This document shows positions 28,112 to 37,691 of a DNA stretch of 64,000 nucleotides, one piece after another (the stretch's first letter is position 1; each line of letters starts with the position of its first letter). A model generated the notes under the pieces. The model worked only from the letters and a program-made list of their open reading frames with translations, made no database searches and was not told where the DNA came from. Position numbers and translations under genes: made by a program. The stretch spans positions 582 to 64,581 of the forward strand of contig DASZXH010000081.1 of assembly GCA_035545995.1 (NCBI GenBank), written 5' to 3'. The stretch comes from Verrucomicrobiia bacterium (GTDB lineage: Bacteria; Verrucomicrobiota; Verrucomicrobiia; Limisphaerales; UBA11358).

Positions 28112-28186
28112 TGGCAGCGCGTACGGGAATCGAACCCGTCTTTCAGCCTTGAGAGGGCCGTGTCCTGGCCGATAGACGAACGCGCC
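28112..28186 (-). tRNA. tRNA-Glu(CTC)
   Basis: GGCGCGTTCGTCTATCGGCCAGGACACGGCC-CTCTCAA-GGCTGAAAGACGGGTTCGATTCCCGTACGCGCTGCCA; cloverleaf, TTCGA loop, encoded CCA. Confidence 0.96.
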
Positions 28187-28391
28187 TTGTAAAGCCGAAT
28201 CCATCCTACGTTCAACCTGCAAAATGTCAATAAAACCAGCGGCCAATCTTCATCTTGCGTCGCCGGAAAACCCGTTTATCATGACAATAAATTTCAATCA
28301 AAGGCACACTGCCTGCTTGTTGATTTGTTCCCGAAACCAATCTGTTTTGGCGGTGTTTGAATTTGAGCCGGTGGACGGTATATTTTATTTG

Positions 28392-29156
28392 ATGAAACGT
28401 GTTGGAAAAATTGTAGTTTGCCTTGCGAGCGGACTGGCATTAAGTGCCAGCCTGTTTGCGGTTGAAGACACATCCACCAATAATCCTTACACTTTGATTC
28501 CTGCACGAAATGTTTTCGGTTTGAATCCGCCACAATTAGTCACCAATACTTCGACTATTGACCCGCCGGTGAAAATCACTCCAAATGGTATCATGACCAT
28601 CTCCGGGATGAAACAGGTTCTTTTCAAAGTCGCTGGCGTTGCAAAGCCCGGCGTGCCGGCAAAAGACGATTCTTACATCCTCGGCGAAGGCCAGCGGCAG
28701 GACGACATTGAAGTCACGCACATTGACGAAAAAAATGGCATCATCAGCTTCAACAATCACGGCGTCGCGCAACAACTTCCATTGGCTGCCGCACCCACCA
28801 TCACTGCACCAACGCCAGTAGCGGCTAGACCGGTGACCGTTAATACCACGAGTGGTAATATTCCCAACCCAAATGGCGGAAATGGAAATGCTGGAAATGG
28901 CCGTGGTTTTGGCCGTTTTGGCCGCAATCGCGACGGCAATACCGGCAATTCAAGCGGCGGAAACAATGGTTCCAATTTGCGCAACACGCCAACGCAGCAA
29001 CAAACACAACAGATTGACCCTGATACGCAAATGATCATGATGGAAGCCAACCGGCAATTGACGGCAGACCAAGTAAAGCGCGGAGAGCTACCACCTATTC
29101 CACCTACCGAACTTACACCATCCGATGCTCCGGGGTATACACCGCCAGCACCCTGA
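28392..29156 (+). CDS. Secreted hypothetical protein with Pro/Gly/Asn/Gln-rich tail
   Basis: Signal peptide; NPYTLIPARNVFGLNPP; low-complexity C-terminus. Confidence 0.75.
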   Translation: MKRVGKIVVCLASGLALSASLFAVEDTSTNNPYTLIPARNVFGLNPPQLVTNTSTIDPPVKITPNGIMTISGMKQVLFKVAGVAKPGVPAKDDSYILGEGQRQDDIEVTHIDEKNGIISFNNHGVAQQLPLAAAPTITAPTPVAARPVTVNTTSGNIPNPNGGNGNAGNGRGFGRFGRNRDGNTGNSSGGNNGSNLRNTPTQQQTQQIDPDTQMIMMEANRQLTADQVKRGELPPIPPTELTPSDAPGYTPPAP

Positions 29157-29264: not shown

Positions 29265-30803
29265 ATGAAACATTCACGATTAGTTTCTCAAGGTTCTTTA
29301 AATCGTATGCTTCGAGAAGCTGATGATGCTTGGAAAAGATATGATTTCCCAGCCGCCATTGAGACCGTTAAGCGGGCCAGTCGATTAGACCCTTCAAACG
29401 CAAGATTACTGCTCAGCCTTGGTCGCATGTATGGGCTTCATTTTGATTACGCCACCGCTGAAAAATGTTTTGAACAGGCAGTCCGTGTAGCTATTCAAAA
29501 ATCTGAAACATTAACAATTGCGGGCCAATATAGCTATGATTTTGGTAATTATTCCATGGCTGAAAATTACCTCCGACGTGCTCTAAAAGAGAAAAATCTT
29601 CCCACAATTCTGGTCAAACTAGCCGAAGTTTTTGAACGACTCCGGCGGTCCGAAGAGGCAACTGACTTGGTTCAACAGGCTTTAAAAATAGATCCTGCGT
29701 GCGCTTCGGCATTACTCTCGAGCGCTCGACTCAATCGGCAGGCGAAACAACTTGAGACTGCAGAAACATTACTTCGAAATTTTCCGTCGAATGCCGACCC
29801 CGCTCTTCGTGCAAGCGCGGCATATCAACTCGGCGACATACTGGACCGTCAGGGACGATACAGTGAAGCTATGGCAGCGTTTTTCGAAGCCAAGGCCATG
29901 CTAAAACCTTTGGCCGCGCAACCCATAGCAGAATTGAAAGTGATGCGAGCCAGGATCAATCACCTTATAGCGAACATCTCTAGTGACAAATTAAAACAGT
30001 GGACCGCTATAGCTAATCTATTTCAGCCAATCCACAAAATAGTTTTGTTAGGTGGACACCCGCGTTCTGGCACTACTTTATTGGAGCAGGTTTTGGATTC
30101 GCACCCTGACATTATTTCGGCGGAAGAAACCGAAAACTTTTTTAACTATGCCTATGGCCCTCTTTTGCGCGGCCACTCCGATAATACGGCTATGTTTGAA
30201 GCGCTCACTGCAACTACTTTTAGCGCACTTCAACAAGCCCGGAAAAATTATTATTATGCCATGGAATCATCACTAGGGAAACCTCTCAACGAACGATTGT
30301 TGATTGATAAAAACCCCTCATACACTTTTTTGATTCCTGCGTTTATCCGCATCTTCCCGGAAACCAAGTTCTTGATCGCTTTGCGCGACCCGCGAGACGT
30401 GGTCCTGAGTTGTTTTATGCAAAATCTTCCACTCAACCAAGTTGGTGCCGCATATTTGACTCTGGAGAGCACTGCCGAAGAATACACCGCTTTGATGGGG
30501 GTGTGGCAAACCATTGTGCCTCTAATGTCCTCGCCTTTTCTTGAGATACGATACGAAGATATGGTGGAAAATCTCGAATCCGTCGCACGCAAAACTTTGG
30601 ATTTTTTGGGTATTTCGTGGAACACCCAAGTGCTGGGATTTGATGAACATGCGCGTAAAAGGACGGTTCGTTCTCCCACTTACGCCGACGTGACACAACC
30701 GGTCTACAAACGTGCCGTGGGTAGATGGCAACATTACCAAAAATATCTGGAGCCTTGCCTAACCAAACTGAAACCGTTTATAAAAGCATTTGGTTATGAA
30801 TAA
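29265..30803 (+). CDS. TPR-containing sulfotransferase, paralog 1
   Basis: N-terminal TPRs; 5'-PSB GHPRSGTTLLEQVL; DKNP; 3'-PB RDPRDVVLSCF; RYEDMV. Confidence 0.92.
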   Translation: MKHSRLVSQGSLNRMLREADDAWKRYDFPAAIETVKRASRLDPSNARLLLSLGRMYGLHFDYATAEKCFEQAVRVAIQKSETLTIAGQYSYDFGNYSMAENYLRRALKEKNLPTILVKLAEVFERLRRSEEATDLVQQALKIDPACASALLSSARLNRQAKQLETAETLLRNFPSNADPALRASAAYQLGDILDRQGRYSEAMAAFFEAKAMLKPLAAQPIAELKVMRARINHLIANISSDKLKQWTAIANLFQPIHKIVLLGGHPRSGTTLLEQVLDSHPDIISAEETENFFNYAYGPLLRGHSDNTAMFEALTATTFSALQQARKNYYYAMESSLGKPLNERLLIDKNPSYTFLIPAFIRIFPETKFLIALRDPRDVVLSCFMQNLPLNQVGAAYLTLESTAEEYTALMGVWQTIVPLMSSPFLEIRYEDMVENLESVARKTLDFLGISWNTQVLGFDEHARKRTVRSPTYADVTQPVYKRAVGRWQHYQKYLEPCLTKLKPFIKAFGYE

Positions 30804-30809
30804 CCGAAA

Positions 30810-32357
30810 ATGAAAAAATCTCAATTAATTGCCACAGGCTCACTAAATCGGATGCTACAAACAGCTGAAGAGGCGTGGCACAGAAAAGATTTCCAAGAAT
30901 GCCTTGATATGCTAGAACGCGCCAGCCGGCTTGCGCCTTCCAACATTAATATCCTTCTTCAACTGGGCCGCATTCATGGTTTGCGTTACAACTTTTCTGC
31001 GGCTGAACAATGTTTTGAAAAAGTACTCCGTTTCACGGTTAAAAAAACAGAAGCACTTATAGCCATCGCAGACCATTGTCAAAATTTTCAAAATTCAACC
31101 ATTGCAGAAAATTATTTGAAGCAAGCTCTTAAGCAACCGGATGCGACATCCAATACATACGTCAAGCTTGCAGAACTTTATGAACGCCTCCGCCGATTGC
31201 CCGAAGCTTCGCAGTTAATTGAGCAAGCACTCGAATTGGACCCAACCCATCCAGCGACATTGCTGACCTATGCCCGATTAGAACGGCTGGCAGGAAAATT
31301 TGAGTCAGCCGAACGGATTTTACGTTCATTTATTTTTAAGCCATCCGCTGATGTTTGGACTCATGCCCGTGCTTATTATGAACTGGGAAATATTTTAGAT
31401 CGCCAAAAAAGGTATGACGAAGCCATGTCGGCGTTTCTTGAAGCCAAAACGCTCATGCGACCACAAGCAGCGAAACATCTGATTGAATTAAAGACGCTTC
31501 GCGAACGACTGAAGGTAATGGAAACAAACGTTTCATCAGAAATGTTAAAACGTTGGTTCGATGAAGCGCCAAATCTTTTTCCTTCCCGACGGCTGTCCCT
31601 GTTATGTGGTCATGCCCGCTCCGGCACCACTTTATTGGAGCAAGTTTTGGACTCGCATTCTGATATCATCTCAGCGGAGGAGACCACTATCTTTGTTGAA
31701 GATGCTTTTGCCCCGCTAAAGCGCAATCTACCACCAGATGCTTACATGCTGCCCGTTTTAGAAGCGGCTCAAATTTCCGATTTAAAACAAGCGCGCACAT
31801 CTTATTTCCATTCGATGGAATTGTCTTTGGGAAACATTATCGGCGGTCGATTACTACTCGACAAGAACCCCGTGCTTACATTTATGATTCCAGCCTTTAT
31901 CCGTGTTTTTCCTGAAACCAAATTTCTGATTGCTTTACGCGACCCTCGTGACGTGGTTCTAAGTTGTTTTATGCAACCACAACCGCTTAATCCGGTGACA
32001 GCGGCCTACTTAACTTTGGAAGGGACAGTTGATGATTATATCGCCAATATGAGCCTGTGGCGAACATTCGCACCGTTGATGCCAGTGCCTTATCTTGAGA
32101 TTAAGTATGAAGGCATGGTGGAAAACTTGGAATCCGTGGCACGTAAAACTTTAACTTTCCTCGGCGTCTCCTGGGAAGCGAAGGTGTTAGGATTTAATGA
32201 ACATGCCAGAAATAAATTGGTGCGTTCCCCCACTTATGCTGACGTCACCCAGCCTATTTATAAACGCGCATTGGGCAGATGGCAACATTATCAAAAGTAT
32301 TTGGAACCACATCTTATCAAACTACAATCTTTCATTAAAGTGTTTGGTTATGAATAA
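30810..32357 (+). CDS. TPR-containing sulfotransferase, paralog 2
   Basis: GHARSGTTLLEQVL; RDPRDVVLSCF; VRSPTYADVTQP shared with paralog 1. Confidence 0.92.
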   Translation: MKKSQLIATGSLNRMLQTAEEAWHRKDFQECLDMLERASRLAPSNINILLQLGRIHGLRYNFSAAEQCFEKVLRFTVKKTEALIAIADHCQNFQNSTIAENYLKQALKQPDATSNTYVKLAELYERLRRLPEASQLIEQALELDPTHPATLLTYARLERLAGKFESAERILRSFIFKPSADVWTHARAYYELGNILDRQKRYDEAMSAFLEAKTLMRPQAAKHLIELKTLRERLKVMETNVSSEMLKRWFDEAPNLFPSRRLSLLCGHARSGTTLLEQVLDSHSDIISAEETTIFVEDAFAPLKRNLPPDAYMLPVLEAAQISDLKQARTSYFHSMELSLGNIIGGRLLLDKNPVLTFMIPAFIRVFPETKFLIALRDPRDVVLSCFMQPQPLNPVTAAYLTLEGTVDDYIANMSLWRTFAPLMPVPYLEIKYEGMVENLESVARKTLTFLGVSWEAKVLGFNEHARNKLVRSPTYADVTQPIYKRALGRWQHYQKYLEPHLIKLQSFIKVFGYE

Positions 32358-32363
32358 AAAACG

Positions 32364-32387
32364 AAAGCCGCTCCGAAGAGCGGCTTT
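32364..32387. terminator. Bidirectional terminator (duplicated at 34549-34572)
   Basis: aaagccgctc-cgaa-gagcggcttt. Confidence 0.8.
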
Positions 32388-32417
32388 CCTGGTGAAAACA
32401 AAAACAATCAAACAACT

Positions 32418-33017
32418 TTATGCCTGTTTGCGGCGATACGCCACAAGGGCTGCCAAACCACCTAAGCCGGCTAAAGCCAACGTGGTAGGTTCAGGAACAA
32501 CTTGGAACACAGAAAATGGCACCAAATTATTCAACTGGTTAGCATTTGGTAACGTCGTTCCAGTTGCCAGAGTCGCCGTAAACGCCGCCGAATGCCCACT
32601 ATAGGTACTACTTGCATAATCGGCACCATTAAAGGCAACTATCTCAAAATACAAAACCTGTCCTACAGCTTGCGATATATTCAAGTTAGGGCCGCTGACA
32701 TAACCTATTCCACCTGGACCAGCCGCATTCCCAGTGTCGAACAGAGCAGTTGAACCAACCGTCCAACCGTCAGTCAACGGACTACCAGCCGTTCCAGCCG
32801 TAGTTGCAGCATCATTAATGGGTGTTGCCGACCAAAGCAACTCGCCAGTAAATGTGCTGTCCAAGCCTTGGCCAGCCAAAGGACCATTACCATAGGTAGT
32901 TAAAATTCCAGCAAAGTTTTGAGCATTATATGTGTCAAAAGCAATACTGCCCTGACCATACGATGAAACAACCATGCCAGCCACACCCAACGCTGCTATG
33001 ATTACTGTTTTTTTCAT
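32418..33017 (-). CDS. PEP-CTERM surface protein, copy 1
   Basis: Signal peptide; C-terminal VPEPTTLALAGLGGLAALVAYRRKQA. Confidence 0.93.
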   Translation of the reverse strand: MKKTVIIAALGVAGMVVSSYGQGSIAFDTYNAQNFAGILTTYGNGPLAGQGLDSTFTGELLWSATPINDAATTAGTAGSPLTDGWTVGSTALFDTGNAAGPGGIGYVSGPNLNISQAVGQVLYFEIVAFNGADYASSTYSGHSAAFTATLATGTTLPNANQLNNLVPFSVFQVVPEPTTLALAGLGGLAALVAYRRKQA

Positions 33018-33079
33018 ATTTTAATTATTGTTGTTGTTTTTGCTTTTCAGATTTTATTTTAATTATCTTAGTCAAATGA

Positions 33080-33736
33080 TTATGGGTTCAAAGTTTGCAC
33101 CCAATTCGATCCGGAAACTGGAGTATTAATAAAAAACCCTTGGCCAACAGATATGTTGAAACTGCCACCCCACCCGCTACCACTTTTTCCAACCGCAGTA
33201 TTATATTGCTGACTTCCAGTATTCCACGAAATCAACTGACTTTTATTAGCTAAACTACCGCCTAAATTAATATTCGTGTCTGTTGTAGCATCACCAGTAT
33301 ATGGAACAGGACTACCAACTGCCGAAAAACCCGAAGCAATAGAATTGGTAATGCTTGAGCTGGAGGCAACCACAACACTTCCAACAAACGTGTTGGTCAC
33401 TGGTGTCGGGCTGCTATTTAAAACAAAAAAGCCTTCACCGGGTGGCAGAGCAACACTTGAAGCCCATCCACCGGTAACTTTTCCAATACCAGTATTAAAC
33501 GAAGTGCCGTTCCATGTAACCACTTGGGATTTATTCGCAAACGCTCCAGTTAAAACGTTGGTAAGCTGATTACCATTGCCGTCATCAAACGGATTTGCCA
33601 TCAACGTATAACCGTTACCGACAGCCACGACATTGGCATAGCCGACGACATTTTGGGAATAGACGTTTTGAGCCTGGGAGGAAACAATTCCGGCGGCGCT
33701 CAAACCCGCAGTCAGAAGTAGTGCTTTCGTTCTCCT
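33080..33736 (-). pseudogene. Secreted 'NVYSQNVVGY' protein, copy 1: frame intact but ATG and promoter -10 deleted
   Basis: Paralog of 35206-35862; ATG AGA ACG reads AGG AGA ACG here; 46 nt replaced by 4 nt. Confidence 0.7.
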
Positions 33737-33877
33737 AAATTCAACCCCCTGTCAACAACTTTTTTCAGGTTTTAGCCACACAAATTACGTTAGGTTTGGC
33801 AAATTCAGACTTCCCGCCTTGCCACACACTATCTCTGCGCCAATATCATCATGTCCATTGACTCAAAAACAGTATTT

Positions 33878-34285
33878 TTAATGAGTTGCTTCCGGGAAAT
33901 TGCAAGGAATGACTTGATTACCGTGTTTACGATAAACTGTAAAATCCTCACGATCAAGGGTGAAAATTACAGCCGAATCATCAAGTTCGGACATACACAC
34001 CAAACAGGCATCGGCCAAGTCCATTTTGTAATCTTGATATTTGCCAAGCAGTTCCAAAAGGCGCTTTGCTTCCGCTTCGGCGGCGAAACTCACCCGCACA
34101 TCGCCGTAAGAAACCAATTGCATCACTTTTTGCGGCGCACGGCTTAAATGGGCTGTTTCTGTCAACACCGCTTCGCAAGTTGCCCATGGCGCATACTGGG
34201 GAAATACCGTGGCCGCCCAGCGATGATAAGGGTCATTGCGGTCCAAAAGCGCTTTTAGCAAGCCGGTATCCGCTACCGCTTGCAT
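33878..34285 (-). CDS. PIN-domain (VapC-like) toxin
   Basis: VADTGLLKALLDRNDPYH, TCEAVLTE, MDLADACLV, IFTLDREDF. Confidence 0.9.
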   Translation of the reverse strand: MQAVADTGLLKALLDRNDPYHRWAATVFPQYAPWATCEAVLTETAHLSRAPQKVMQLVSYGDVRVSFAAEAEAKRLLELLGKYQDYKMDLADACLVCMSELDDSAVIFTLDREDFTVYRKHGNQVIPCNFPEATH

Positions 34286-34482
34286 TGCATGACCTCTTTT
34301 ACCCGTTCGTTGGTTGCCGGAATACCGTCACCGCTTACGCTGCCAATCAAATCCGCCGAAGCAAATCTGTACGGTTTGGTTTGCAATTCGAGCGGCTCAA
34401 CACGAACTTTTGTACCGTCAGCCAAATTGGCGTCAGAAGGCAATTTGACGAGTCCGTGTTCAACTGTTCCCATGTAACTCAT
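34273..34482 (-). CDS. Probable antitoxin (AbrB/AF2212-like N-terminus)
   Basis: MSYMGTVEHGLVKLPSDANLADGTKVRVEP; overlaps the PIN start. Confidence 0.75.
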   Translation of the reverse strand: MSYMGTVEHGLVKLPSDANLADGTKVRVEPLELQTKPYRFASADLIGSVSGDGIPATNERVKEVMQCKR

Positions 34483-34602
34483 ATTTTGAAAATATCGTTG
34501 CTGCCCATGTAAAAAGCAAATCCTTTCCATGTTTTATGAATAAAAGCGAAAGCCGCTCTGAAGAGCGGCTTTCCTGGTGAAAACAAAAACAATCAAACAA
34601 TT

Positions 34603-35178
34603 TTAAGCCTGTTTGCGGCGATACGCCACAAGCGCGGCCAAACCACCAAGGCCGGCTAAAGCCAATGTGGCAGGTTCAGGAACAGGCTGCAAAACAAGAG
34701 CCGAAATCAAACCCGATCCTCCATTTGCCGGATTTCCATCTGCGACCCACGCCTGCACTGTTCCAGTGGCTAACGGCATACTAAATGATGCAGTATGTCC
34801 ATATGCGGTTCCCGCTCCATAAGAAGCGCCATTAAACGCAATTATTTCAAAATATACCAAACCACTCGTATAGCTCGGCAATACCAAGTTTGGGCCTTGG
34901 ATATAACCTGCAATTACGCCCGGCTGATCGAAAAGCGCTGTTGACCCAACTGTCCACCCCTGACTTAAAGGACCAGCACCGGCAGTATCATTAATCGGAG
35001 TTAATGAATAAAGCAGCTCTCCGGTAAATGTTCCGTCAAGCGGCACTCCATTAAAAGTTGACAAAATACCATTGCTATTATTAGCAGTATAGGTATTAAA
35101 CTGAATTGACCCTTGACCGCGCGATGAAAGAACACCGACAGCCAAGCCAAGCACTCCAAGTATCAACGTTTTTTTCAT
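34603..35178 (-). CDS. PEP-CTERM surface protein, copy 2
   Basis: Signal peptide; C-terminal VPEPATLALAGLGGLAALVAYRRKQA. Confidence 0.93.
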   Translation of the reverse strand: MKKTLILGVLGLAVGVLSSRGQGSIQFNTYTANNSNGILSTFNGVPLDGTFTGELLYSLTPINDTAGAGPLSQGWTVGSTALFDQPGVIAGYIQGPNLVLPSYTSGLVYFEIIAFNGASYGAGTAYGHTASFSMPLATGTVQAWVADGNPANGGSGLISALVLQPVPEPATLALAGLGGLAALVAYRRKQA

Positions 35179-35205
35179 ATTATTTCTTATTGTTTTTGTT
35201 TTTGG

Positions 35206-35862
35206 TTATTGCAAAGATTGAGTCCAATTAGTCCCAGATTGAGCCTTGATAAAAAAGCCTTCGCCCACTGAAATATTGAAAGCCGATCCCCAAACACCAC
35301 CACCTTTTTGAACCGGCGTGTCATAAACCTGACCAGCAGTATTCCATGAAATCAACTGGCTTTTATTCGGCAAAACACCGCCCAAGTTAATGTTGGTATC
35401 GCTAGTTGCATCCCCAGTATAAGGCACATAGCTGCCAGCCAGACTAAACCCAGTTGGAATCGAATTTGTCGCACTCGACCCCGAGCTCACAACAACACTT
35501 CCAACAAAGGTGTTGGTAACATCAGGATTGCCCGCTATTCCGTTTTTTACAAAAAAACCAGTTCCAGGAGGCAGGCTTATGCTGCTACCCCAAACACCAC
35601 CACCCTTTTGAATCGGAGTATCAAACGTTGTGCCATTCCAAGTAATGACTTGAGACTTATTCGGAAGAGACCCAACAAGATTCGTCAGCTGATTTCCATT
35701 GCCATCATCGAAGGGATTGGCAATCAGCGTATATTCGCCATTGCCTTTAATGATGACATTGGCATAGCCGACGACATTTTGGGAATAGACGTTTTGAGCC
35801 TGGGAGGAAACAATTCCGGCGGCGCTCAAACCCGCAGTCAGAAGTAGTGCTTTCGTTCTCAT
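35206..35862 (-). CDS. Secreted 'NVYSQNVVGY' protein, copy 2, with two internal repeats
   Basis: MRTKALLLTAGLSAAGIVSSQAQ signal; LPNKSQ..W..QKGGGVWGS..GFF occurs twice. Confidence 0.88.
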   Translation of the reverse strand: MRTKALLLTAGLSAAGIVSSQAQNVYSQNVVGYANVIIKGNGEYTLIANPFDDGNGNQLTNLVGSLPNKSQVITWNGTTFDTPIQKGGGVWGSSISLPPGTGFFVKNGIAGNPDVTNTFVGSVVVSSGSSATNSIPTGFSLAGSYVPYTGDATSDTNINLGGVLPNKSQLISWNTAGQVYDTPVQKGGGVWGSAFNISVGEGFFIKAQSGTNWTQSLQ

Positions 35863-35894
35863 ATTTTTTATTTAGTGTTACCGTGTGTGCCTCA

Positions 35895-35923
35895 AATATC
35901 TCAATGATTCAACCCCCTGTCAA
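35895..35923 (-). promoter_or_regulatory. Sigma-70-like promoter of cassette copy 2
   Basis: Minus strand TTGACA-17 nt-GATATT with an extended TG, about 32 nt upstream of the ATG. Confidence 0.6.
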
Positions 35924-36004
35924 CAACTTTTTTCAGGTTTTAGCCACACAAATTACGTTAGGTTTTAAGCAATTACCTCTGGAAAATTAGAAAAAAGGCA
36001 GAAA

Positions 36005-37573
36005 TCACAAACCGCTTGGAAATTGAGGCGATTCCAGCCAATCGATCAAAATCTGCAATTCCAACGCGGTAAATCCCAAAGTGGAGCGGCGCAGCAACGA
36101 TAATTCATTGGTATTGGTCAAAGTGGCTACAGTCGTAGAAGCATCGAGGCGGGGCATAATCGTATTCAACCAAACTGCGCCAACTGAATTCAATGGAAGT
36201 TGAGGCTGGCGCGAGATTTGACGAATAAATTGGCCGAGATAGAGGGTGGATTGGACGCGCGGTGCGCTGACTTCCCAATCATAATAAAGCAGATTCGTCC
36301 GGCTGGTCACGTCGTGAATCATGCCCTGCGACGGCGGCGCGGCGTTGGCAACCGTATCAGGAAGCAGGCCGGCAAAAAACCATCCGGTATTGTCTGTTTT
36401 TATGAACGGCAGAATGGAAGGGTCACTTCCCCATTTCACTCCATTGGCATCCGGCAATTTTTCAAAACCAACATAACCATGTGCTGCCAGCCAGGGATTT
36501 GATTTTTGTAACAATACACTTGTGAGGCTTTGCATCTGGTTTTCGGCGTTTGCCATCGGTGCGGCCAAATAAGTTTGATAAGGACTGCCTTGCAATGACC
36601 AAAGATAAATCTGATTTGGCGGATTGATTTGAAGTTCATTCCAGCATCTCATGGATACCAACCATGATTTAATGCCGCGAATAGCTGTAAAGCCGATTAA
36701 CGGCTCGTGCATCAAATGAACGGGTATGTTCCAGGGTTCCATTTCAACCTCAAGCGGCTTTGGGAACACGGCCTTGCCACGCGTGAAAACGCTGCCACCA
36801 TCGCCGTTCATTGTGAACGAAATACGCGGAGAGTTTTCAGGAAGGCCCCAATCTATTGAAAATGCTTTGGCAGCACGCTGCAAATCAATATCCGCCTCCA
36901 GCCAATTGGCATTGGTCGTTTTTTGACCGGAAAATGGAACTTGAAATTGCCGAATGCACGCGCCGGCTTCATTCAGCAGGTCGCTTTTCCCGTCAGACCA
37001 ACCGATAACTGTCCAATTATTTATTCGCGCGAGCTTGATTTTATTGGTTTCACCGTGATTTTGAACTGTCCAGGCATCGTCGGCATTTTCAACAATATGA
37101 ATGCCGGGCAACGCGTGCAGGACGGCCGGAAAATTCGTTTGCCAATAGCGAGCCTGCTCTTCACCAAGTCGTATGGCAAAAATCATTTGTTTCGACTGAT
37201 TGGTCAGTTGCCGGATTTCAAAATATGATTCTTCCTGAACAATATCGTTTAACAACGGTCGTAGCCGCAGCGCATTGGTGGCAATAATATCATTGGATAA
37301 GGACAGCCATGGAGCGACGGCCAGTTTATTCAGTGTTTGCGTTTCCAACCGCGCGCTCTGGGGTAATTGCCAGATGCGGGTGAAATAATAGGCGCTCGCC
37401 ATGATTCCCAACCGTTTTTTTCCCAACCAATGAACTCGGGCAATGGTGTCGGGTGACGAGACGGCGGGTATTGATAACAACGGCGGCAAATCAGAATTTG
37501 ATTTGTTACAACCCAGAGCAAATACGAGAAGAAAAAGAGCTATCAATCCTGTAAAAACACGCCTGATTTGCAT
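36005..37573 (-). CDS. Hypothetical lipoprotein
   Basis: MQIRRVFTGLIALFLLVFALGC lipobox; long ORF. Confidence 0.75.
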   Translation of the reverse strand: MQIRRVFTGLIALFLLVFALGCNKSNSDLPPLLSIPAVSSPDTIARVHWLGKKRLGIMASAYYFTRIWQLPQSARLETQTLNKLAVAPWLSLSNDIIATNALRLRPLLNDIVQEESYFEIRQLTNQSKQMIFAIRLGEEQARYWQTNFPAVLHALPGIHIVENADDAWTVQNHGETNKIKLARINNWTVIGWSDGKSDLLNEAGACIRQFQVPFSGQKTTNANWLEADIDLQRAAKAFSIDWGLPENSPRISFTMNGDGGSVFTRGKAVFPKPLEVEMEPWNIPVHLMHEPLIGFTAIRGIKSWLVSMRCWNELQINPPNQIYLWSLQGSPYQTYLAAPMANAENQMQSLTSVLLQKSNPWLAAHGYVGFEKLPDANGVKWGSDPSILPFIKTDNTGWFFAGLLPDTVANAAPPSQGMIHDVTSRTNLLYYDWEVSAPRVQSTLYLGQFIRQISRQPQLPLNSVGAVWLNTIMPRLDASTTVATLTNTNELSLLRRSTLGFTALELQILIDWLESPQFPSGL

Positions 37574-37691
37574 GGCTGATTTAATGCCAGAAAACCTTTT
37601 AGCTCTCAAACATAATCAATTGCTTATCGGAAGGTAGCATTTTTTAATTTGTCAACTTGCGGGTGCGTTATGAGGTCACTACGCTTACGGC

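Follow-up and report, generated by a model that had tools for sequence, protein, structure and literature searches.

The 64-kb stretch of DNA analyzed here (hereafter, the window), part of the Verrucomicrobiia metagenome-assembled genome G000, carries on its minus strand two direct copies of a unit consisting of a promoter, a gene for a secreted protein with the motif NVYSQNVVGY (NV gene), a gene for a PEP-CTERM protein (PEP gene) and a terminator. The 2 units appear to be divergent alleles of one operon stacked on identical 5′ ends (heads), with one allele retaining its promoter and the other lacking the −10 element, the leader and the start codon. Horizontal transfer is the likely source of the second allele, and the silent allele may represent a one-shot reserve, a reading to which we assign a probability of roughly 0.55. 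This reading builds on the anatomy of the locus, the identity of the heads, the saturated divergence of bodies that are not sisters, the mosaic alleles found throughout the family and the recurrence of the one-on/one-off arrangement in 4 congeners, from which we infer the remainder.

In copy 2, a 59-nucleotide (nt) upstream block (35907–35965) with the −35 element TTGACA at 35923 is followed by a 46-nt block present only in this copy (35861–35906), which holds an extended −10 element (TG-A-GATATT, ending at 35895), the leader CACACACGGTA, an A-rich initiation region and the AT of the start codon. The open frame of NV2 (35206–35862) encodes a secreted protein of 218 amino acids (aa) with a signal peptide and the NVYSQNVVGY motif, and its 106-nt head (35755–35860) runs from the signal peptide through VVGYANV. 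PEP2 (34603–35178) encodes a 191-aa PEP-CTERM protein with a predicted Ig-like beta-sandwich, and the tail of the unit (34548–34600) includes the terminator (34548–34573); the 10 nt beyond the tail match the end of a sulfotransferase gene. Copy 1 has the same order, namely a 59-nt block with an orphaned −35 element (33739–33797), a 4-nt filler (33735–33738; CTAA on the plus strand) in place of the 46-nt block, NV1 (33080–33734), PEP1 (32418–33017; 199 aa, PEP-CTERM, with its own ATG) and a tail (32363–32415) with the terminator at 32363–32388. NV1 is an open frame without an ATG, in which the first in-frame TTG, at 33703, would yield a truncated signal peptide.

The heads (33629–33734 = 35755–35860) and the 59-nt blocks (33739–33797 = 35907–35965) of the 2 copies are identical base for base, and the 46 nt are replaced by CTAA with the frames still open, exactly as the original prediction had it; indeed, all 4 frames, NV1, PEP1, NV2 and PEP2, are open. 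At the other end, 41 nt of the tails are identical (32375–32415 = 34560–34600), with further 26- and 15-nt matches in the PEP tail, whereas the longest exact match between the copies inside the mature regions is 17 nt. The bodies are 69% (aa) and 67% (nt) identical for NV and 57% (aa) and 61% (nt) identical for PEP. At fourfold-degenerate positions, the NV genes differ at 0/20 sites in the head versus 41/58 in the body (Fisher p = 8e-9), and the PEP genes at 4/17 sites in the tail versus 31/41 in the body (Fisher p = 4e-4). The combination of constant heads with saturated middles is more than chance, and the claim of constant ends enclosing strongly diverged mature domains is confirmed by both the site counts and the body identities. 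Between the cassettes lies a gene pair missing from the earlier account of the locus: a PIN-domain (VapC-like) toxin gene (33878–34285; 135 aa, open frame, PF01850 above the cut-off) and a small open reading frame (34273–34530) that overlaps the toxin start by 13 nt. The latter, a likely antitoxin gene, has no family match, and its homologs precede PIN genes in 2 other genomes (G090 and G162). The 2 genes likely constitute a putative type II VapBC-like toxin–antitoxin pair.

The promoter of the operon, TTGAC-N17-GATATT/GATAGT, and the leader CACACACGGTA are conserved among relatives, and the deletion in copy 1, which spares the −35 TTGACA, therefore removes real signals. Among 87 distinct NV+PEP starts with 90 nt of upstream sequence, TTGAC is present at the −35 position in 79, and the 8 starts lacking it all come from genomes with 2 cassettes. 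Thus, the expectation of one copy with an intact promoter and one without is supported, the conserved promoter of the family being retained in copy 2 and lost in copy 1. We refer to copy 2 as expressed and to copy 1 as silent, labels that are inferred from these promoter sequences. Two other interpretations of the junction were considered and set aside. Restoration of NV1 translation by an AGGAG formed at the junction is unlikely, the nearest in-frame CTG and TTG being 16 and about 29 nt away. Similarly, no support was seen in the sequence for CTAA, a target of IS5, as the footprint of an insertion sequence.

Phylogenetic analysis places the bodies of the 2 copies apart. In the NV body tree, copy 2 groups with P0002 and L031 and copy 1 with L048 and L051. 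A clade of the 2 window copies is rejected by the approximately unbiased (AU) test for the PEP body (p = 0.0003) and for the joined bodies (p = 0.005), on 26 of 48 rows chosen for carrying both genes and for closeness to the window copies. The suggestion that both proteins travel together is supported, both the NV and the PEP bodies of copy 2 grouping with L031, the head of which is only 62% like that of the window. Throughout the family, heads that are 95–99% identical carry bodies that are 55–72% identical between unrelated contigs, and near-identical heads with divergent bodies likewise occur on separate contigs within G207, G309 and G381. Cassette alleles appear incongruent with their flanks across lineages, with near-identical heads carrying bodies of different clades. 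The occurrence of the constant-end/variable-middle pattern between unrelated contigs indicates allele exchange across lineages and by itself does not prove switching within a genome. Bodies appear to move among heads family-wide, and the window seems to hold 2 alleles from this pool on one head rather than a diverged local duplicate; one of them was likely acquired from another lineage. Given that 165/165 head bases are identical, the duplication event must be recent. A related observation concerns a 2.3-kb contig of G453 (C69; L202), which matches the cassettes of G381 (L195/L196), a genome from another family, in its upstream sequence and almost completely in its head, and represents either a misbinned allele or a cross-family transfer.

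The arrangement is not confined to G000. Among the matches listed, full NV genes occur as a pair on one contig in 7 genomes (G000, G075, G153, G155, G160, G177 and G225), and in 5 of these (G000, G075, G153, G155 and G160) one copy has the consensus promoter and the other does not. In G177, the second unit lies directly behind the first and has a different head, and the second NV gene of G225 is a paralog without a PEP gene. The 8 starts devoid of −35 are copy 1 of the window, the off copies of G075, G153, G155 and G160, the second unit of G177 and both units of G207; in the last genome neither copy has a −35, so that on and off cannot be called. G150 (copies 97–100% identical, on 2 contigs), G051, G225, G409, G415, G233 and G453 were also examined and are not on/off pairs. 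Within pairs, the heads are 100% identical in G000 and G075 and 98% identical in G160. The pair of G075 shares 99 identical nt from the ATG and 42 + 95 nt at the tail, with bodies 62% identical. Its cassettes, like those of G155, are inverted relative to each other, whereas those of the window are direct. The silent copy of G075 is followed by tRNA-Glu, GspC-like, HNH, TPR and VCBS genes, the order found behind single cassettes in G092 and, in part, G011; the expressed copy adjoins an integrase gene and the VCBS end, and the order in G155 is uninverted. An inversion through the heads would explain the gene order in G075, although not the orientation of its integrase gene. Thus, the on/off layout recurs in G075, G153, G155 and G160, and the inversion in G075 fits head recombination. 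The 5 on/off genomes look like stages of one process, in which an element is parked, an allele is stacked and the heads are inverted.

We inspected contigs from soil runs X1–X4 of one study, possibly the source sample; 3 of the runs cover the locus, with a small share in X4. These 31-mer contigs cannot phase the 106-nt heads with the bodies, and contigs drop rare variants. In X2, the 106-nt block forms a single contig with a depth of 102 versus 35–55 for its neighbors, and the depths of both bodies and of the toxin–antitoxin segment are 35, 48 and 55 versus 41–45 for the flanks. One contig of X1 runs through the CTAA junction (32386–33797) without differences, a toxin–antitoxin contig links the copy 2 terminator to the upstream block of copy 1, and the contigs of the 3 runs list no sequence differences within 32300–36100. 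The assembly, with 91 contigs, is 93% complete with 0.08% contamination. As far as contigs can show, the locus is not a repeat error, the X2 depth supporting 2 heads per genome and X1 the CTAA junction, and the worry about an assembly artefact that accompanied the original prediction is allayed to that extent. A joint in X3 (32374–34560) has the form expected from loss of copy 1; it was not counted as a recombinant, since its depth is 4.5, its cover is patchy and it may be a misjoin across the 41-nt repeat. Differences in contig depth were not used to infer excision.

We propose that strains normally replace the NV and PEP bodies by recombination at the conserved head and tail, and that the exchange in G000 was additive, a foreign body having entered with the toxin–antitoxin pair while the host head was duplicated. 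In the simplest order of events, copy 1, still adjacent to the ancestral sulfotransferase gene, would have been the resident, and copy 2 would have been placed ahead of it; the opposite sequence of events, with entry through the tail, would yield the same map. The 46-to-4-nt deletion would then have shut copy 1, leaving one allele on display. The repeats being direct, a crossover between the 106-nt heads, whether RecA-mediated or by slippage, would not exchange the cassettes but delete 2126 nt (the copy 2 body and the toxin–antitoxin pair). Copy 1 would then be read from the strong promoter, and both proteins would change in a single, irreversible step. Recombination between the 41-nt tail blocks would instead remove 2185 nt with the loss of copy 1, and recombination between the 59-nt blocks would yield a promoter that no longer works. 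Every route of collapse would lose the toxin–antitoxin pair, the loss of which would penalize the collapse, so that the pair would hold the tandem in place. The likely selector would be recognition of an abundant surface protein by phages or predators. As judged from its sequence, the pair would permit the cell surface to be exchanged in one direction only. That recombination in the 106-nt block would put copy 1 under the intact promoter and change both proteins together, as originally predicted, stands in this form; it would be a one-way deletion, and no recombinant was found in the contigs of the 3 covering runs. The comparison with silent-cassette archives of the pilE/pilS and vlsE kind fares worse, in view of only 2 copies, no body tract longer than 17 nt and direct repeats.

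Several observations weigh against this interpretation. With the NV body by itself, a sister relation of the 2 copies is not rejected (AU p = 0.368). The incoming copy could be either of the two, the map being the same for both orders of entry, and because the event is recent, the open frames of copy 1 prove nothing about its maintenance. Neither a head recombinant nor a third allele is present in the X1–X4 contigs. Copy 1 may not be fully silent, as a promoter-like TGGACA-18-GATAGT (33857–33828, minus strand), the count of which is at chance level, lies in the 80-nt spacer before it and could give low PEP1 expression, as could read-through from the toxin–antitoxin genes. In relatives, the heads of the paired cassettes are only 85% (G155) and 76% (G153) alike. 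Finally, genomes with 2 cassettes are rare, the matches listed yielding 7 same-contig pairs among the 120 genomes of the genus and 281 of the order with a match, and in G051, G150 and G381 the 2 copies both have promoters, although they lie on separate contigs and possibly represent strain mixtures.

A link to mobile DNA comes from the relatives, in which tyrosine integrases are encoded at the NV-PEP operon (L083:4318-7314, L085:5815-8027, L086:5899-11078, L039:4416-7397, L095:3456, L112:3148 and L135:5882-6243). The operon-located integrases, from G075, G152, G153, G155, G160 and L039, form one clade of 6 (SH-like approximate likelihood ratio test [SH-aLRT] support of 100 in a quick tree of 17), the sister lineages of which sit at tRNA-Arg ends; several are split, truncated or remnants, for which long-read errors are possible. 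Putative arm motifs lie before the leader and behind the terminator, and L039 has the PEP-terminator-arm succession twice. In G153, G155 and G160, the silent copy has a 20-nt motif where its −35 would be. A scan of 185,579 genomes returned 29 stretches with this motif, including 21 with a tRNA-Arg/Lys end or fragment 45 or 55 nt further on, 1 with a tRNA fragment on the other side and 7 (at 6 places) at NV/PEP genes, a distribution that matches the pattern of an integrase arm site. In the silent copies of G153, G155 and G160, the motif is found at the same spacing as to the tRNA ends elsewhere. A second copy of the motif, in the 3′ end of the integrase gene, is located 132–135 nt from the tRNA-Arg anticodon core in 7 loci, and in 7 other loci the PEP stop and terminator take the place of this core. 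Each of the on/off pairs of the 4 congeners adjoins an integrase clade that appears to have shifted from tRNA sites to the operon. G153 (L085) and G155 (L084), different species representatives, have expressed cassettes with bodies 99.6–100% identical and differing silent alleles on the same arm; the shared expressed cassette may reflect a recent transfer.

Integrative islands that target tRNA genes with tyrosine integrases carry a duplicate of their target. The elements in the relatives resemble them in having arm repeats at both ends, an integrase gene read towards the attachment end and a 46-nt duplicate of the tRNA-Arg 3′ part 132–135 nt from the arm, but differ in that one clade has the NV-PEP terminator instead of the tRNA piece and, in 3 genomes, a complete cassette without promoter follows the other arm. 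The window differs from both in having neither integrase nor arm: a search of G000 (93% complete) found neither the operon integrase, at a cut-off of E 1e-20, nor the arm motif, with up to 3 mismatches allowed, and the 7 other PF00589 matches are all on other contigs. The window therefore lies outside this element family and shares only the outcome. It is tempting to generalize that the main surface operon of the order, perhaps a two-part S-layer, is switched by stacking, whereby mobile DNA would deliver a silent allele that captures the host promoter through the signal-peptide head. In relatives, a retargeted integrase would carry a promoterless allele in place of the tRNA duplicate, and the window would be the integrase-free, toxin–antitoxin-guarded form. 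We put this broader view forward as tentative.

The most serious alternative, which we regard as rather unlikely, is that copy 1 has the same horizontal origin and is a dead leftover, the deletion having been selected or having drifted so as to shut the old allele, without reactivation before decay or loss. In keeping with this scenario, the lesion takes out the transcription and translation signals together, the recency of the event deprives the open frames of any weight, lesions differ among the 5 on/off genomes, PEP-tail remnants and decayed duplicates are common behind the operon (G146, G139, G090 and G153), and the low-depth X3 joint, if not a misjoin across the 41-nt repeat, has the form of copy 1 loss. 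Yet the silent NV and PEP frames are open in all 5 genomes, the lesion spares the whole 106-nt coding head, and G075 appears to have been switched through its heads.

A programmed reversible switch, in which a dedicated tyrosine integrase swaps the cassettes or silent tracts are converted as in pilE/pilS, vlsE and sap, is improbable. It would draw on the 6-member integrase clade at the operon, on the arm motif that replaces the silent −35 in G153, G155 and G160 at its tRNA-end spacing and on the inverted pairs of G075 and G155, which could flip both ways. However, G000 lacks this integrase and arm motif at the thresholds given above, its 2 copies are direct and share no body tract exceeding 17 nt, and several of the integrases in relatives are damaged, unless through long-read errors. 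Still less credible is an old tandem duplication in place, with bodies that diverged and ends homogenized by local gene conversion. Each copy ranks among the nearest matches of the other (69% aa), both ends reach the same flanking landmarks and the NV body taken alone tolerates a sister relation, but the PEP and joined bodies reject one clade, saturated synonymous divergence across 2-kb direct repeats would require long survival, and the pair is found in none of 163 congeners. A chimera of 2 co-occurring strains with one cassette each, conceivable for a metagenome-assembled genome with a repeat that 31-mer contigs cannot phase, is the least probable explanation, considering the X2 depths of bodies, toxin–antitoxin segment and head, the contig joining the copy 2 terminator to copy 1 and the 0.08% contamination.

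The stacked-allele reading has counterparts among known systems of surface variation. In Lactobacillus acidophilus, a rare inversion at slpA/slpB, present in 0.3% of chromosomes according to PMC3666127, couples a silent S-layer gene to the active promoter. The likeness lies in the combination of one expressed and one silent surface-protein gene, with a rearrangement giving the silent gene the active promoter, and G075 and G155 have the same inverted layout. The shared 5′ region of slpA and slpB is the crossover site; in the window, as in slpA/slpB or sap-type systems, an identical 5′ block, here of 106 nt, lies downstream of a single promoter, the function of which is suggested by its conservation in 79/87 starts. 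The window differs in that its copies are direct rather than inverted, so that the switch would be a one-way deletion. It also differs in its unit, an operon of two genes that includes a PEP-CTERM anchor, in the apparent cross-lineage origin of its alleles and in the toxin–antitoxin pair between the copies. A second parallel is the S-layer cassette of Clostridioides difficile, with which the window shares the exchange of surface cassette alleles across lineages; C. difficile reportedly has one cassette per genome, which is replaced. According to PMC8809339, this cassette is hypervariable, multi-gene, exchanged among lineages and tied to phage binding. By contrast, the window stacks 2 cassettes with one off, although a single match is the rule in the order (256/281 genomes), and an S-layer role of NV/PEP is only a candidate one.

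With pilE/pilS, vlsE and Campylobacter fetus sap, the locus has in common the constant ends, the variable middle and a partner without promoter or start. Unlike pilE/pilS and vlsE, it has no silent array or mosaic tracts, the bodies are 67% and 61% identical (nt), and the host is a free-living soil bacterium; vls cassettes are about 90% identical (PMC11499132). The PEP proteins fit PEP-CTERM/exosortase sorting (PF07589, TIGR02595, PF09721), both carrying the motif in a genome with an exosortase; the difference is a partner NV protein without a family. In literature listings and the beginnings of abstracts, neither this locus nor the NV family was described, and no PEP-CTERM operon was reported to be stacked or switched, in agreement with the original prediction, which knew of no PEP-CTERM precedent. 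On the strength of these analogies, the locus would work like slpA/slpB combined with cassette replacement of the C. difficile type, that is, known schemes of surface variation in a new lineage and protein family.

The NV family is widespread, with profile matches in 120 of 163 genomes of the genus and in 281 of 401 genomes of the order (G466 is included in the order tally only), 256 of the 281 having a single match. A PEP-CTERM gene follows 87 of the 106 distinct NV starts with upstream sequence. Contrary to the notion that further copies of the constant blocks might exist in the genome, blastn, tblastn, motif and profile searches of G000 (93% complete) found only the two; the other matches to a PEP-motif regular expression (26 including the two, several spurious) share only the tail and were discarded as silent copies. 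Of 45 metagenome contigs, 24 start between 5 and 25 nt upstream of the ATG, and most terminate close to or at the PEP stop. This outline resembles that of an abundant bicistronic mRNA, and the contigs may be of RNA origin.

Both PEP proteins have the features of PEP-CTERM substrates, namely a signal peptide, a C-terminal PEP motif above the cut-off, a hydrophobic helix and a basic tail, and G000 encodes an exosortase as well as RecA and a ComEC-type gene. A surface role is thereby predicted by motif for the PEP proteins and would extend to the NV proteins. Consistently, the NV domain is elsewhere fused to a PEP-CTERM tail or embedded in long multi-domain proteins, one with 8 matched stretches (L029, L141, L143; P0147, P0157, P0212), which supports an extracellular role. 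The predicted model of NV2 (predicted local distance difference test score of 89.9) consists of two small beta-sheet repeats. NV2 has no Pfam or NCBIfam family, its fold has no Foldseek match at E 0.001 (best Z 4.0), and the best hit of a PDB sequence search has an E of 0.87. For PEP2, the best fold match is SlaB (8qox_B; Z 7.3, root-mean-square deviation 2.9, 92 aligned), below the bar of 8. The Atlas feature neighbors of NV2 are unnamed Verrucomicrobiota clusters, and its structural look-alikes include PKD, fn3 and type IX secretion system tail proteins, which are leads only. Within NV2, 36-nt stretches of the internal repeats (35288–35323 and 35588–35623) are 89% identical versus 69% to the matching NV1 stretch, a pattern of intragenic homogenization.

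The operon is flanked by the usual neighbors of its congeners, a gene for a 534-aa hypothetical protein upstream (36005–37609, minus strand) and a convergent TPR-sulfotransferase gene downstream (30810–32357, plus strand), so that the window corresponds to the ancestral site plus one extra unit. Two tandem TPR-sulfotransferase paralogs (29265–32357; 58% aa identity) adjoin the operon here and in many congeners and might modify surface proteins or their glycans; more paralogs are visible as cross-matching contigs in X1 and X2. A tRNA-Glu gene (28112–28186) and a GspC-like gene (28224–29156) are conserved distal neighbors. Additional PEP genes or PEP-tail and terminator remnants surround the operon in other genomes (L193 of G146, L176 of G139, L177 of G090, L075, L179, L188, L097 and L032), including three PEP tails in G146 and, in L075, a tandem of three PEP genes, which gives the operon tail the look of a landing site for cargo. 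In G139, G141, G157, G162 and G163, homologs of the toxin–antitoxin pair are found downstream of the operon within about 10 kb, and in G090 they lie behind a PEP-tail remnant; their proximity to the operon in 6 congeners indicates that such cargo is typical of the site.

Collectively, the locus is real and recurrent and, as far as the contigs show, not an artefact. It draws attention to a surface operon that has no name so far, is nearly universal in a common soil lineage (281/401 genomes searched), is probably abundant and undergoes diversifying exchange. It also suggests a testable path by which horizontal exchange of alleles could give rise, in a free-living bacterium, to on/off pairs resembling slpA/slpB. 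The NV-PEP operon might serve as a phage receptor, and the integrase clade retargeted to it might provide a natural means of exchanging a whole operon.

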